From the IMG/VR virus record IMGVR_UViG_3300028597_000007: a stretch of DNA of 64,000 nucleotides; one strand, written 5' to 3'. The stretch comes from a virus. A program made the translations under genes and the position numbers. The notes beneath the pieces are model-generated. The model was given only the letters and a program-made list of their open reading frames with translations, had not been told where the DNA came from and did not search any database. This document shows positions 45,232-57,885 of the stretch, piece after piece (the stretch's first letter is position 1; each line of letters begins with the position of its first letter).

Positions 45232-46558
45232 AGGCAATGAAAAGCTGAACGAAATCCTGGGTGGTCTGCTGACCAGTTATCAAGGTCTGCAAGCTATGGC
45301 AGATGTACAGCGTGATGAGTTCATGGCGGAGATCACCGACGAAACCGGCAAGATCGACCTGGTCAAACTGACCGCCCGTACCGATCGCCTTCGAGCCGAA
45401 CGATCAGCGCAAGAGCAACAAAAACACCCCTACGAACTGAACCCGGTGGACTTTGTCAACAACCCGACCCATCGTGCGGATATTCTCGCAGGGCTTGAAG
45501 GGTTCCTGAAACTGGACTACACGCAGGGGCATGATCCGGTGGCTGAAAATCCAGCCGAAGCAGCCAAGTCCTGGATTCGTCAGGTTCTCGCTTGGGCTAC
45601 TTGCAGCAAGGGCTACCAGGAGCAGATCGAAAGCTTCACCTCCAGCACTGAAGAAACCAACATTGCCGAGAAACTCGGTCGTGGGTTGGTCAAGCCGGAG
45701 GTAACCTACGATGACGATGTCAACATCATCAAGCGTGTCCAAGAGGTGCTCGACGCAGCTCTGGAAGGTAACGATTACCACGAACTCAAGAATGCGGCTG
45801 AAACTGCTCGCGAGTTTGTAAAGGACGTTCTCGTCATGGTCACCAGTGTCCGACATAACACGAAGCCCGTGCTGGACCTGAAGAAGATCGTTGAGATCAT
45901 GCGTGATTGGGTTGAGGCAGAAAGCCTGGCTAGCCATGTGAAGTTCGACATGGCCAACATGATCGAGTCCCTGGACAAGATCATTGCTCAGCACATTGGT
46001 GAAGACGTTCCAGTCGCCGTCGATGCCCAGGTGACCACCGAGTCGCGCACGGTTCACTCGCTTGGCGCAGTAATGTCGGCGGCCAATGACCACCCGCTGG
46101 ATATCGACCAGACAGCACTGAAAGAAGTGGCACTGTGGCTGAACTCGATCGTTGCCAACAACCCAGGCTTCCACAACCTAGGTAAGGAAGGTTACATCAT
46201 TGTACCTAGCTCCAACAATCTACCAGGCAATGTTGTCGACTCCGTTCGTGGTTACCTGATCTCCTATGGTCAAGGCGAGCACATGGCATCGGAACTGCGC
46301 TCTCAGGCAGCGGTGCGTGGTGACCTGTCCATCAACCACATGCCTGAATGGTTTGCCACTACCTGGGGCCATACCTCCAAGGGCGGCTTTGCTGCGCTGA
46401 TGTACCACACCATGACCCAAGTGGCGGCTCAGGAAAAACCGAAGACGGTCCACATCAGCAGCGCTGAGTTGGGCAAGTTGGAAGAAGCCATCCGCAACGA
46501 TCAACCCTTCGCTCTCGTTGACTACATCAAGAGCGCCACCAAGAGCGACGTGAAATGA
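45221..46558 (+). CDS. Helical hypothetical protein (445 aa)
   Basis: Long ORF coupled to tmk and folA. Confidence 0.85.
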   Translation: MSHEGNEKLNEILGGLLTSYQGLQAMADVQRDEFMAEITDETGKIDLVKLTARTDRLRAERSAQEQQKHPYELNPVDFVNNPTHRADILAGLEGFLKLDYTQGHDPVAENPAEAAKSWIRQVLAWATCSKGYQEQIESFTSSTEETNIAEKLGRGLVKPEVTYDDDVNIIKRVQEVLDAALEGNDYHELKNAAETAREFVKDVLVMVTSVRHNTKPVLDLKKIVEIMRDWVEAESLASHVKFDMANMIESLDKIIAQHIGEDVPVAVDAQVTTESRTVHSLGAVMSAANDHPLDIDQTALKEVALWLNSIVANNPGFHNLGKEGYIIVPSSNNLPGNVVDSVRGYLISYGQGEHMASELRSQAAVRGDLSINHMPEWFATTWGHTSKGGFAALMYHTMTQVAAQEKPKTVHISSAELGKLEEAIRNDQPFALVDYIKSATKSDVK

Positions 46559-47250
46559 CCGAACGTAAAATCTGCTGCATCCTCGCCATCAACAAGAAAG
46601 GCGTGATCGGCCACAATGGTAAGTTGCCGTGGCATCTACCAGACGACCTGGCGCGTTTTAAGCGCATCGTGTCGGGCAACACCATGGTCATCGGCCTGCG
46701 CACCCACGAGTCCATTCAGGAGTTTCGCGGGGCGGCCGTGCGCACCCATGACCGAAAGGTCAAGGAAGCCTGGGATAACTTCGATAAGGTCAAAGTAGAG
46801 ATCATTGCTGCTGGCCACTCGGAAGCCAAGCAGAAGCGCCTGATTCAACAGGCACAGTTCCGCTGCGACCAATCCTTGGGGCTGATCGATCCGGTGTACT
46901 TCCCGCACTCGCTACCCAACCGCTTGACCATCGTGGTTTCGACCACCATGGTGGAGCCTAGCAGCAACCCCAACATTCGCGTAGCGCGCTCCCCCGAAGA
47001 AGCGATCGCCATTTGGCAGCGCGAGGGCAAGGGCAATCTGTACGTGGCTGGCGGCGCCAAGCTGTACGAGGCGTTCTGGGACAAGATGGAACTGCTGCAC
47101 CTGACCATCGTCGAAAACGAAGTTGATGGTGACACCAAGTTCCCGTTCGAACTCCAGGGCGCCGAGTGGCGGCAGTTAGCCAAACAGACCATGCGCGACG
47201 ACAAGGAAAACATCACCCACGTATTCCACGTGCTGGCCAAGAAGGTGTAA
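46555..47250 (+). CDS. folA: Dihydrofolate reductase with an insertion of about 62 aa
   Basis: VIGHNGKLPWHLPDDLARFK, LPNRLTIVVS, YVAGGAKLY, GDTKFP. Confidence 0.92.
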   Translation: MTERKICCILAINKKGVIGHNGKLPWHLPDDLARFKRIVSGNTMVIGLRTHESIQEFRGAAVRTHDRKVKEAWDNFDKVKVEIIAAGHSEAKQKRLIQQAQFRCDQSLGLIDPVYFPHSLPNRLTIVVSTTMVEPSSNPNIRVARSPEEAIAIWQREGKGNLYVAGGAKLYEAFWDKMELLHLTIVENEVDGDTKFPFELQGAEWRQLAKQTMRDDKENITHVFHVLAKKV

Positions 47251-50896: not shown

Positions 50897-50939
50897 GGGC
50901 CTTGCTAGATGTATTAGCAGGAATTATAAGGATCGCACG

Positions 50940-51224
50940 ATGCGAACACTGATCGTGGGAGGGTTTGGAATGGCTCTGGCGAGGGCGCTTTTGCGCGAGG
51001 TCGCCATGCCTGTGGTTGAGTGCGATGCCGTGAGCGGCGTCGACTTCGACTATGAGGCCGACTATGAGCCTGGTTCCAAGTTCTCCCGACCATGTGCGGG
51101 GCTGTGTCGACCGGTACCTGCGCGCCTTCAACCGTACCGCACTGTAAAGGACAGTGTATGGACAGCTGGGGTCGCGCACAGTCCGAGAAGACCTTTTGAA
51201 CTCAAGGGTGTAACGCCGGCATAG
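50940..51224 (+). CDS. Hypothetical protein
   Basis: AAGGA SD. Confidence 0.55.
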   Translation: MRTLIVGGFGMALARALLREVAMPVVECDAVSGVDFDYEADYEPGSKFSRPCAGLCRPVPARLQPYRTVKDSVWTAGVAHSPRRPFELKGVTPA

Positions 51225-51384
51225 CCCACTATCAAATCCGGCCCATAAGTGAAATAGGAGCATCCCACGAACTACTGGCTTTACTGGTTAGCATTGCTAA
51301 TCGGGTCAGTGGTCGCAATACCAGTTGTGCTCACGCGGAACACTACCGTTCTCTTGCCTTGGACCGTTGGGGTCGGGCTTGTGG

Positions 51385-51820
51385 AAACGTGTACCGGGTG
51401 TGCGAGGCTGGTATGGAAAAGTGTGTTGGCTGGGATTGGCAAATCGCCTAATCCAAACCTGAATACTTTCCAAGCGACTGCCTGACAAACTCACAGGCCG
51501 CATTGCCGAAAGCAGGGGGTTTAAATGGACCCCATTAAGAGACCTCCGGTTTTCTCTTGTATATCTGCACAGATGTTCTGCTCGTGTAGCCTTGGGTTAA
51601 ACTGAGTTCCCACGGACTCAGCCCTTGAGCGCACCCAGACCTAGGTAGTGACCCCCCGGCGGTACCCCCAGTCCAAGTAAGGCCAACACGTCCCCGTGGG
51701 GGATACGTGAAGAGCTGCTTCCTTGACTCTCTAGCACCACCAGCAGGCTGACGGCTGGTTGGTTTCACTGAGAGCTTGTGTGGCCTTGAGTCCGGTAGGG
51801 TACTCGTCGGGTACACGTTT
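51385..51820 (+). ncRNA. Candidate large structured non-coding RNA (about 435 nt)
   Basis: 11-bp closing helix AAACGTGTACC/GGTACACGTTT, nested 8-bp helix, at least eight local hairpins, no credible ORF over most of it. Confidence 0.5.
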
Positions 51821-51842
51821 ACTTATGCCCTTGGCCCGTTTA

Positions 51843-51879
51843 AACCAAATCTCAGACCTGAATTATCACTCTGAATGAC
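51843..51879 (+). promoter_or_regulatory. Putative early phage promoter (37-nt repeat)
   Basis: AACCAAATCTCAGACCT-GAATTATCACTC-TGAATGAC. Confidence 0.75.
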
Positions 51880-55959: not shown

Positions 55960-56427
55960 GTGATGCCGGAATATCGTCGCTTTCGTACCTCGCTTTGCCG
56001 TCGTCTGTTCTCGGGTTACTACGCCTGGTATCTGGAGAACCGCGAAACGTTGGAAAAGATCCATCTGGTTGTTGACTACAGTCAGATGATCGATGTGCCG
56101 TTCTTGGAGTCATACGCAACCAAGACACTGCACCCGCTGTACAACACCGAAATCCATCAAGTGATCCTCAACCTGTCGCCGGAAGCTATCCGTGGCTTTG
56201 GCGATACCGAGTATGGGATCTACTTCGATGCGCGCTTCGGCGGCGTAGATCAACATGTCGTCGTTCCTTGGGCGGCATTCATGCAGGCGTTTGTACTTGA
56301 CGAGAATAACACGGGCCAAGCGCCCATGGGCTTCTCTGGCTTCCCTCCCTATGAGTACGAGGCTGTAAAGGATGAACCAACTCCACCAACCCCAATCGGA
56401 AGACCATCTCTCTCCGTCGTCAAGTAG
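55960..56427 (+). CDS. sspB: SspB-like ClpXP protease adaptor
   Basis: HLVVD, ILNLSPEAI, FDARFGG, VPWAA, C-terminal RPSLSVVK ClpX-binding motif. Confidence 0.88.
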   Translation: MMPEYRRFRTSLCRRLFSGYYAWYLENRETLEKIHLVVDYSQMIDVPFLESYATKTLHPLYNTEIHQVILNLSPEAIRGFGDTEYGIYFDARFGGVDQHVVVPWAAFMQAFVLDENNTGQAPMGFSGFPPYEYEAVKDEPTPPTPIGRPSLSVVK

Positions 56428-56514
56428 AGAGCCTTGGTTATGCGCACTTGTCCTGGTCGTAAGCCTGGGCATTTGCGGTCTATCAGTTATCTCCTTTCTC
56501 CACTAGGAATCGTC

Positions 56515-57885
56515 ATGAACAAATTGCAAGCAACCATCCGTAACCTGCTGGAAAACGGCGTGGAGCGCTCCGATCGTACTGGGGTCGGCACCCTGGCACA
56601 GTTCGGCCATATTGACCGCTGGGACCTCGAAGCAGGTCATCCACATGAGAATGCGAAGTTCACCCCGTTCAAGATCAACGTGGCTGAGTTGATCTGGATC
56701 ATCTCGGGCTCTACTCGCCTGAAGTTCCTCAAGGAACACAAGTGCCATGTGTGGGATGAATGGGTCAAGCCTGGCACTGAAGTGTGGGGACGTGAGTATA
56801 CCTACAAGGAGCGCCTGGAGATCTTCAAGCGTAAGTGCGAAGAAGGCAAGATCCAGAAAGAGGCCGTCGATCAGTACGTCGACATTTGGATGGAGATGCA
56901 TCCGAATGCGGTGATGGATGTTGAAGCCCATGAGCTGATGCTTGAGAACTTCAACATCCACACCCATGAACTACTCGACGGTGAACTGGGTCCTGTGTAC
57001 GGTCAGCAGTGGCGCAGCATCGTCGATACTCGTCGCGTTACCTTGAGTGAGGTTGAAGGCTACGTCAAACGCGGCTACCGCTTTGTCGGTGTACTGAAAG
57101 AGTCTGGCAACTCCCAGCACACTCCTGGACGTGGACGGCGTGGTCGAGGCCGCCGCATGATACGCACCGGTACTCGGATCAAGAGCAGTGCCAAGGTAGC
57201 CATCGTTGAGCGCAAGATCGATCAGCTGCAGAACGTCATCGACCAGCTCATCAACAAACCAGACGATCGCGGTATTATCGTCAACGCCTGGCATGTGCCT
57301 GATCTGGACCAGATGGCCCTGCGCCCTTGTCACACCCTGTTCCAGTTCGACACTGAGCGTCGTCCATGGGACGAGGTGCTGAGCGACATCACTGAGTCCG
57401 AACACTGGGACGAGTGGGATGAGCGCATTCAGGGCAAGTCCTCCCTCAAGAAAGAGGCGGAAGACTGGATCGAGGCCCGCAATGGCCGTGGGTTCCGTTC
57501 GCCGGACTTCTACGAATTCATCTACGAGTTTGCAGAGTCCAAACGTGTCCCCACTCGCAAACTGAGCTGCCTGCTCTACATGCGTTCGAACGACAGCTTC
57601 CTCGGGCGTCCATTCAACATCACCCAGTACGCTTTGCTGACCCGCATGGTGGCCCAGGTGGTGAACATGCATCCAGGCGAATTCGTTCTGGTCAACGGCA
57701 ACCTACACCTCTACAAGAACCACATCGAAGCGGCGAAGACCCTGCTGGAACAGAAGGGCGATCGTCCTCTGCCATGGGTCAACATCAACCCAGATGTCAA
57801 GCGTATCGAGGACTTCAAGGTTGAAGACTTCGAACTCATCAACTATGACCATGGGCCGAAGATCGGCGCACCGGTGGCAGTATGA
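56515..57885 (+). CDS. thyA: Thymidylate synthase with large insertions
   Basis: DRTGVGT, GELGPVYGQQWR, MALRPCH catalytic Cys, RSNDSFLGRPFN, HLYKNH. Confidence 0.95.
   Translation: MNKLQATIRNLLENGVERSDRTGVGTLAQFGHIDRWDLEAGHPHENAKFTPFKINVAELIWIISGSTRLKFLKEHKCHVWDEWVKPGTEVWGREYTYKERLEIFKRKCEEGKIQKEAVDQYVDIWMEMHPNAVMDVEAHELMLENFNIHTHELLDGELGPVYGQQWRSIVDTRRVTLSEVEGYVKRGYRFVGVLKESGNSQHTPGRGRRGRGRRMIRTGTRIKSSAKVAIVERKIDQLQNVIDQLINKPDDRGIIVNAWHVPDLDQMALRPCHTLFQFDTERRPWDEVLSDITESEHWDEWDERIQGKSSLKKEAEDWIEARNGRGFRSPDFYEFIYEFAESKRVPTRKLSCLLYMRSNDSFLGRPFNITQYALLTRMVAQVVNMHPGEFVLVNGNLHLYKNHIEAAKTLLEQKGDRPLPWVNINPDVKRIEDFKVEDFELINYDHGPKIGAPVAV

Follow-up and report, generated by a model that had tools for sequence, protein, structure and literature searches.

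The question raised by this locus is what a jumbo phage keeps in a gap that appears to hold no gene. The preliminary description, made from a single genome, had suggested that the gap is gene-poor and purely non-coding, and that a phage-encoded structured RNA of about 435 nt (51385-51820, + strand), outside the described families, occupies it. We analyzed the window, the whole 64,000-nt stretch of viral DNA, together with homologous loci. Covariation, and searches in which no Rfam family matched, bore out a conserved structured + strand RNA encoded by the phage; its extent and its non-coding character had to be revised. Judged from sequence comparison, the element is a large, structured, and previously undescribed phage RNA in which a membrane-peptide gene with a non-AUG start is embedded, and it is probably two-in-one, fold plus peptide, rather than purely non-coding. 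Few large RNAs with an elaborate conserved structure are known from nature. In the literature we found none described for phiKZ-like phages; known sRNAs of the phiKZ group are shorter than 250 nt (PMC11512511).

A conserved element of uncultured phiKZ-related phages

The window derives from a phiKZ-related jumbo phage that has no close relative in culture. The dCTP deaminase encoded here shares 60% identity with the Noxifer enzyme, and in a sister genome the beta subunit of RNA polymerase shows about 34% identity to phiKZ gp71-type subunits (phiPA3 and others); no match to tubulin was found. Neither the gap (blastn for DNA) nor its two flanking proteins had a match in 50,697 GenBank phage records, and the RNA element was not found in GTDB genomes. 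Homologues were gathered from IMG/VR, ENA, JGI, and Logan contigs via the flanking proteins and motif scans; for the distant ones, comparison relied on motifs and folds. In 12 sequence types the element occupied one and the same syntenic position, and these types represent six deep lineages of uncultured phiKZ-related phages (the window genome's group, L006/L087, L028, L073, L075, and L076). Further pattern matches in viral contigs and metagenomes were rejected as chance matches. In three sister genomes of about 230 kb each, one of them complete, the signature motif of the RNA (see below) was single-copy, and neither tRNA genes nor a reverse transcriptase (RVT_1) were found.

Comparison of the homologues placed the onset of DNA conservation at about 51157 and its end at about 51833, well outside the 435-nt unit first proposed. 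The conserved structured RNA comprises at least 51160-51833 on the + strand, about 680 nt, and it ends in a conserved 3' strand (UUAUGCC; 51816-51833, + strand) that is near-invariant in all homologues. Among close relatives the element's 5' part is 85-89% identical, compared to 67-72% for the flanking genes. L029 and L031 carry insertions of two different GIY-YIG homing-endonuclease genes beyond the 3' end; the element itself is essentially undisturbed by them, and they mark its 3' boundary. Both genes are free-standing and lie just 3' of the RNA (L029 5726-6295; L031 5747-6262), and L031 has a second copy of the 3' strand and promoter behind its endonuclease gene.

Upstream of ORF1, a promoter-like motif (50906-50918, + strand) forms part of a 43-nt block that is 88-93% identical in close homologues, and each of the 11 homologues checked had a looser form of the motif at a distance of 500-670 nt upstream of its core. 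Motif conservation suggests that a transcript of about 915 nt likely starts here. ORF1 itself (94 aa; 50940-51224, + strand) has a signal-peptide-like N-terminus, and its 3' end overlaps the 5' pseudoknot of the RNA. The N-terminus is hydrophobic in all nine ORF1 homologues checked and the remainder is weakly constrained (pN/pS 0.48-0.95); ORF1 had no match in PHROGs, Pfam, or ESM Atlas. TATG at 51157-51160 was rejected as a late promoter, since a synonymous change in L087 and its absence from four distant lineages indicate that it reflects ORF1 coding. Of the downstream signals named in the preliminary description, the promoter-like motif is real: it belongs to the next gene, lies outside the RNA (51852-51867, + strand) and recurs at 508, 1867, and 55919. 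The TATGCC reported alongside it is irregular, being found at one of the three other motif copies. This second motif is clade-specific, ends in TATC..TGA, and is distinct from the motif at 50906.

A covarying fold with an invariant hairpin

A 121-pair model was evaluated on eight sequences. In 93.7% of cells the bases were paired and 26 pairs had changed on both sides, compared to 11.5 compensatory pairs in shuffles and at most six in slid controls, a comparison that flatters the model, as it was read partly from the alignments on which it was counted. Only six independent lineages lie behind the covariation, yet sister pairs contribute new compensations: L006 and L087 show fresh compensation relative to each other, e.g. 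an A-U/U-A swap. When the distant lineage L028 was added to the 3' core, 90.7% of cells were paired and 18 pairs had changed on both sides. Among the pair types observed across homologues, G.U outnumbered A.C by 40 to 10, which supports an RNA of the + strand, the orientation already favored from the G.U pairs of this genome. Folding of 51385-51820 also surpassed shuffles more clearly on the + strand (z -3.7) than on the - strand (z -2.8). For the 3' core, + strand z-scores ranged from -1.1 to -5.9 in 11 homologues, and minus-strand folding also beat shuffles in some homologues.

From 5' to 3', the element consists of a pseudoknot, helix P1, a hairpin, a folded ORF2 domain, and a multi-arm 3' core. 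The H-type pseudoknot (51160-51195, + strand) is formed by stem 1 (51160-63/51181-84), which was 100% paired with one compensatory change, and stem 2 (51168-73/51190-95), which consists of 7 bp of different sequence in L006 and L087; the pseudoknot was not traced in the four most distant lineages. The long-range helix P1 joins its 5' strand (51206-51213, + strand) to 51823-51830, with 95% of cells paired. In the window genome, L001, L002, L008, L031, L006, and L028, this 5' strand matches the 3' end better than any other upstream strand does; P1 is weakened in L001 and L087 and unclear in L073 and L075. Next comes a covarying hairpin with a conserved loop (51215-51242, + strand), which lies just ahead of the ORF2 ribosome-binding site and keeps all five pairs in all eight sequences, with two compensatory pairs. 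A weaker helix, 51249-53/51818-22, adjoins the ORF2 Shine-Dalgarno sequence (75-88% paired), and the ORF2 domain is itself folded, with a closing helix at 51305-16/51474-86 (+ strand).

Within the 3' core, a conserved ACA and a short GGC/GCC hairpin (51493-51507, + strand) are present in 13 of 13 aligned sequences. They are followed, beyond the signature hairpin, by an arm around a conserved internal loop (51559-51652, + strand), which is closed by 51559-61/51650-52 and 51565-68/51645-48 and holds hairpin 51602-21, and by a long arm (51655-51811, + strand) built on 51655-67/51798-811 and 51673-77/51785-90. The 13-bp helix 51655-67/51798-811 is 95-100% paired, with 4-5 compensatory pairs, and at 51676/51786 an A-U/U-A swap divides the sequences 4:4. 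This swap contradicts a long helix, 51489-503/51778-91, that appeared in some single-sequence folds. The long arm carries an optional 38-nt hairpin insert (51678-51716), which is absent at nearly the same point in two distant lineages, the L001 group and L006, and is kept as a near-identical copy in the sisters L008 and L087. Its patchy distribution suggests repeated loss or allele swapping.

The helices first proposed for this locus are all present in this genome, but the two long-range ones are not conserved. The supposed 11-bp closing helix, 51385-95/51810-20, is perfect here only and retains 6-9 of its 11 pairs in homologues; by chance, 700 nt should contain about 0.06 perfect inverted repeats of 11 bp (estimate), so that the helix by itself is suggestive at best. 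Similarly, the nested 8-bp helix 51613-20/51787-94, previously read as one arm of a switch, keeps 6-7 of eight pairs, and covariation backs the local hairpin 51602-21 in its place. The covarying partners favored instead are 51389-94 with 51338-43, 51805-11 with 51655-61, and 51785-90 with 51673-77. Among the other local hairpins, 51433-54 is kept, as is 51537-58 with variable sequence, and 51516-33 combines an invariant core with a covarying base. Hairpin 51480-98 is near-invariant but shows no covariation, and a covarying helix competes with it. Hairpin 51561-76 is weak (3-6 of six pairs in homologues), and 51687-709 lies inside the optional insert.

The signature of the family is the invariant hairpin GGUUUAAAUGGACC (51516-51533, + strand; 14 invariant columns in six lineages). 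The fourteen successive bases 51518-31 are identical in six of six lineages, and the base of the stem shows compensatory pairs. Also invariant across lineages are the short hairpin before the signature and the 3' UUAUGC. The 3' core, about 345 nt and non-coding, keeps its signature unchanged even where ORF2 falls to 10-35% identity; on the evidence of the alignments, this invariance is far above any requirement on a 3' UTR. Inside the invariant hairpin lies a palindrome, UUUAAA (51521-51526), a possible dimer contact.

The 3' end is complementary to two look-alike strands, the 5' strand of P1 (51206-13) and a strand of the hairpin (51517-24), which differ from each other by one base, and one U.G pair is common to both registers. 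In every homologue the 5' side and loop of the hairpin are complementary to the 3' end at 12-16 of 20 positions, with no change of register, and this match is top or tied-top among about 630 20-nt windows in 7 of 12 homologues. L075 has a lineage-specific 5-bp extension of the pairing. Since invariant strands cannot covary, the alternative pairing rests on register conservation and this one extension. The 3' end may toggle between the two strands as a switch, or the hairpin loop may form a long-range pseudoknot that stacks on a shortened P1. Prediction puts the hairpin state ahead by 3-15 kcal/mol in the whole element; for some homologues, hairpin and alternative pairing are predicted to be about equal when the core is folded by itself.

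A small gene inside the RNA

ORF2 (51267-51485, + strand) is an unannotated frame of 72 codons with an ACG start and an N-terminal hydrophobic helix. Standard gene callers mostly miss it because of that start. A Shine-Dalgarno sequence, AGGAG (51256-51260, + strand), stands 6 nt before the ACG, and both the motif and its spacing are invariant in all close homologues, L006, and L087. An in-frame stop lies just upstream of the start in the window genome, L006, L029, and L031.

Substitution patterns point to coding. Between close pairs, pN/pS of ORF2 was 0.17-0.27, like that of neighboring genes; the pooled value was 0.45 in frame, compared to 0.61-1.28 in the five other frames, and stops numbered zero in the ORF2 frame and 5-20 in the others. 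L006 and L087 differ by 11 synonymous and five other changes, the latter mostly conservative, and include a serine codon swap from AGT to TCC. Furthermore, the frame is open in six of six lineages for about 64-81 codons, ending 23-55 nt before the invariant hairpin, with a joint chance of about 0.002 as calculated from shuffle rates, and Trp, Pro-Trp, and Gly-Ile-Gly-type motifs recur in frame across lineages. By these measures ORF2 is a small ORF under protein-level selection within a structured RNA. The gap therefore holds a gene, which takes up the first 100 nt of 51385-51820: computationally, the 5' quarter of that segment is protein-coding and the rest is non-coding core.

The candidate starts of distant lineages, GTG, ATA, CTG, or ATC, are inferred from their spacing to Shine-Dalgarno-like sequences; those in L028, L073, and L075 are guesses, and the L028 Shine-Dalgarno sequence is weak. 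Near-cognate starts kept across a phage clade would represent a possible strategy. The best 17-residue hydropathy was 1.8-2.4 in seven of nine ORF2 copies and about 1 in L075 and L076. A low-confidence structure model (pLDDT 53, too poor for a fold search) predicts a helix at residues 3-26. No family match to ORF2 was found in PHROGs, Pfam, or ESM Atlas. A frameshift from ORF1 into ORF2 was rejected, as the frame relation of the two varies among close homologues.

Candidate functions of the RNA

With Rfam 15, no match reached the gathering threshold in the window and nothing credible appeared at E ≤10 in the window and seven homologue loci. These model searches agree with the preliminary description, which had seen no hallmarks of tRNA, tmRNA, RNase P, or group I/II introns. 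Like tmRNA (RF00023), the element has paired ends, structure before an internal ORF without AUG, and a structured region past the stop; in addition, ORF2 has an Ala-rich end in some cases, and there is an SspB-like gene at a distance of 4 kb. Unlike tmRNA, it has no T-arm, G3.U70 acceptor stem, or CCA, and the Ala-rich end is lacking in four lineages. ARAGORN found no tRNA or tmRNA, RF00023 had no match at the locus (E 10 per genome), and ORF2 was rejected as a tag ORF on account of its 64-81 codons, its Shine-Dalgarno sequence, and an Ala-rich end in only two of six lineages. Type A RNase P RNA (RF00010) shares with the element paired ends, a possible pseudoknot strand by P1, and superficial motif echoes; the phage RNA differs in lacking a conserved P4, CR-I, CR-V, and a model match, and in containing a coding ORF. 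A search of three genomes with RF00010, at E up to 10 per genome, gave no match at this locus, and the GGAAA strands considered for P4 (CR-I/CR-V, bulged U) are not conserved in distant lineages. RF00028 (group I intron) likewise gave none at the locus (E 10 per genome), and an intron with rejoining exons was rejected because the flanking ORFs carry their own starts and stops. Group II introns, retrons, and RT-associated RNAs were set aside, with no Rfam match and no RVT_1 in three genomes, and the ROOL, GOLLD, and OLE models had no match. ROOL and GOLLD RNAs usually sit close to tRNA genes, of which the three genomes have none. A CsrA/RsmA sponge was also rejected: a hand count gave about 10 GGA where about 12 are expected.

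We propose, with a probability of roughly 0.45, that the element is a dual-function phage RNA with an RNAIII-like layout, combining a weakly made membrane peptide with a folded core that acts in trans. RNAIII has 514 nt, 14 stem-loops, a 5' membrane peptide with delayed translation, and a conserved 3' domain (PMC12612679). The phage RNA resembles RNAIII/hld of Staphylococcus aureus and Pel RNA in size (about 500-700 nt), many stem-loops, a 5' ORF for a membrane-active peptide, a conserved 3' non-coding domain, and 5'-3' long-range pairing (PMC12612679). It differs in having no sequence or model match to them, an ORF of 64-81 codons with a near-cognate start, and a second ORF upstream; it is unrelated to RNAIII and works like it at most. 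Transcription from the promoter at 50906 would yield the RNA of about 915 nt that also carries ORF1. Initiation of ORF2, at a near-cognate codon (ACG in this genome) behind a good Shine-Dalgarno sequence, would be weak, so that little of a single-pass inner-membrane peptide would be made. The main job would fall to the folded 3' core, acting in trans as a scaffold or sponge for a host or phage protein or complex, to which it would present the invariant hairpin and internal loops; this emphasis is suggested by a core invariance that outlasts the peptide sequence. The 3' end would either hold the core locked in a long-range pseudoknot, in which the hairpin loop pairs with 51818-23 and P1 is cut to 5 bp, or toggle between its two partner strands. 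An element with defined ends, an invariant core, and a putative two-state pairing can be made in vitro without the phage.

Type I toxin systems such as hok/Sok and aapA/IsoA likewise combine a small hydrophobic ORF with alternative folds and 5'-3' pairing, and the 3' domains of type I toxin mRNAs are far smaller than 345 nt. That the element is a tightly repressed mRNA of this kind (hok, aapA, timP) for a toxic or timing membrane peptide is, in our estimate, unlikely, even as the best placed of the rivals. Its structure would then serve entirely in cis, with the 5'-3' pairing and the pseudoknot keeping ORF2 silent until trimming of the 3' end, or its refolding onto the invariant hairpin. The hydrophobic small ORF, the upstream pseudoknot, the 5'-3' long-range helix, and the helix 51249-53/51818-22 adjoining the Shine-Dalgarno sequence are all consistent with such control. 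Moreover, timP/TimR shows the same small hydrophobic ORF, upstream pseudoknot, alternative folds, and 5'-3' pairing, and timP sets a precedent for the use of a pseudoknot and alternative folds (PMC11228461). However, 3' trimming gave no predicted gain in accessibility of the ribosome-binding region in eight of nine homologues (in pseudoknot-blind prediction); the Shine-Dalgarno sequence is thus predicted to stay unreleased. No antitoxin was evident, and a scan for sigma-70 promoters and terminators detected no minus-strand antisense signal. The single copy in a lytic phage, the ACG start, and a very large 345-nt 3' domain with invariant motifs, oversized for a type I toxin mRNA, also argue against this reading.

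The two-register pairing of the 3' end admits a further, improbable reading, in which the 3' core is a ligand-sensing or catalytic RNA downstream of a controlled ORF and the 3' end swaps between the two look-alike GGGU-N-UAA sites. Swapping would license non-AUG initiation or cut out the ORF2 domain. If true, phiKZ-like phages would harbor a ribozyme, or a riboswitch acting from the 3' side, of a new class.

Self-assembly is about equally improbable: as a large ornate RNA of the ROOL/GOLLD kind, the core would form homo-multimers via loop contacts and the ORFs would be a flexible passenger region. ROOL and GOLLD have palindromic kissing loops, and GOLLD has a conserved 3' and a variable 5' part (PMC12286853); the phage K lncRNAs, whose function is unknown, are likewise large and multi-helix and have a conserved 3' region (PMC9241854). 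The element resembles these RNAs in size, phage origin, multi-helix architecture, and conserved 3'/variable 5' organization (PMC12286853, PMC9241854), the invariant hairpin contains the UUUAAA palindrome, and GGCC palindromes recur. It differs from them in that no ROOL, GOLLD, or OLE model or other Rfam family matches, the three genomes have no tRNA genes, and a selected ORF is embedded; palindrome-to-palindrome covariation was not seen.

A group I intron guide pairs in turn with its sites through the same U.G wobble. By analogy, the element could be a ribozyme or self-processing RNA whose 3' strand serves as an internal guide for two GGGU-N-UAA sites in turn, the ORF2 domain being cut or excised, or it could be a remote RNase P-like processing RNA. 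The U.G pair common to both registers, the invariant non-coding motifs, and the free-standing homing-endonuclease genes adjoining the element in two lineages would fit, but we regard this as a long shot: no group I, RNase P, or tmRNA model matched at the locus even at E 10 per genome, a conserved core resembling P4 or P7 is lacking, as is a reverse transcriptase, and L001 and L087 carry a degenerate 5' site. Finally, a DNA-level origin or a packaging or regulatory site whose inverted repeats merely mimic RNA structure, akin to the replication locus offered in the preliminary description, fits a single-copy, intergenic element whose minus strand also folds better than shuffles in some homologues, but is very improbable given the strand-specific, G.U-preserving covariation (40:10 over A.C on the + strand), which extends to long-range and pseudoknot pairs, the coding selection inside, and the lack of a GC-skew inflection.

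An SspB-like gene (phrog_8945; 55960-56427) lies upstream of thymidylate synthase and is kept in most sister loci reaching that far; a link to ORF2 through an SsrA degron was rejected, as ORF2 ends are not conserved. The gene at 53002-53553 matches phrog_652 and phrog_11222, both of unknown function. In L031 (2251-3743) the dCTP deaminase gene is apparently split by a GIY-YIG/NUMOD3 gene (189 aa, endonuclease, 60 aa), possibly reflecting an intron or a split gene. The window's dihydrofolate reductase (46555-47250, 231 aa) and thymidylate synthase (56434-57885, 483 aa) are both longer than usual, with apparent insertions.
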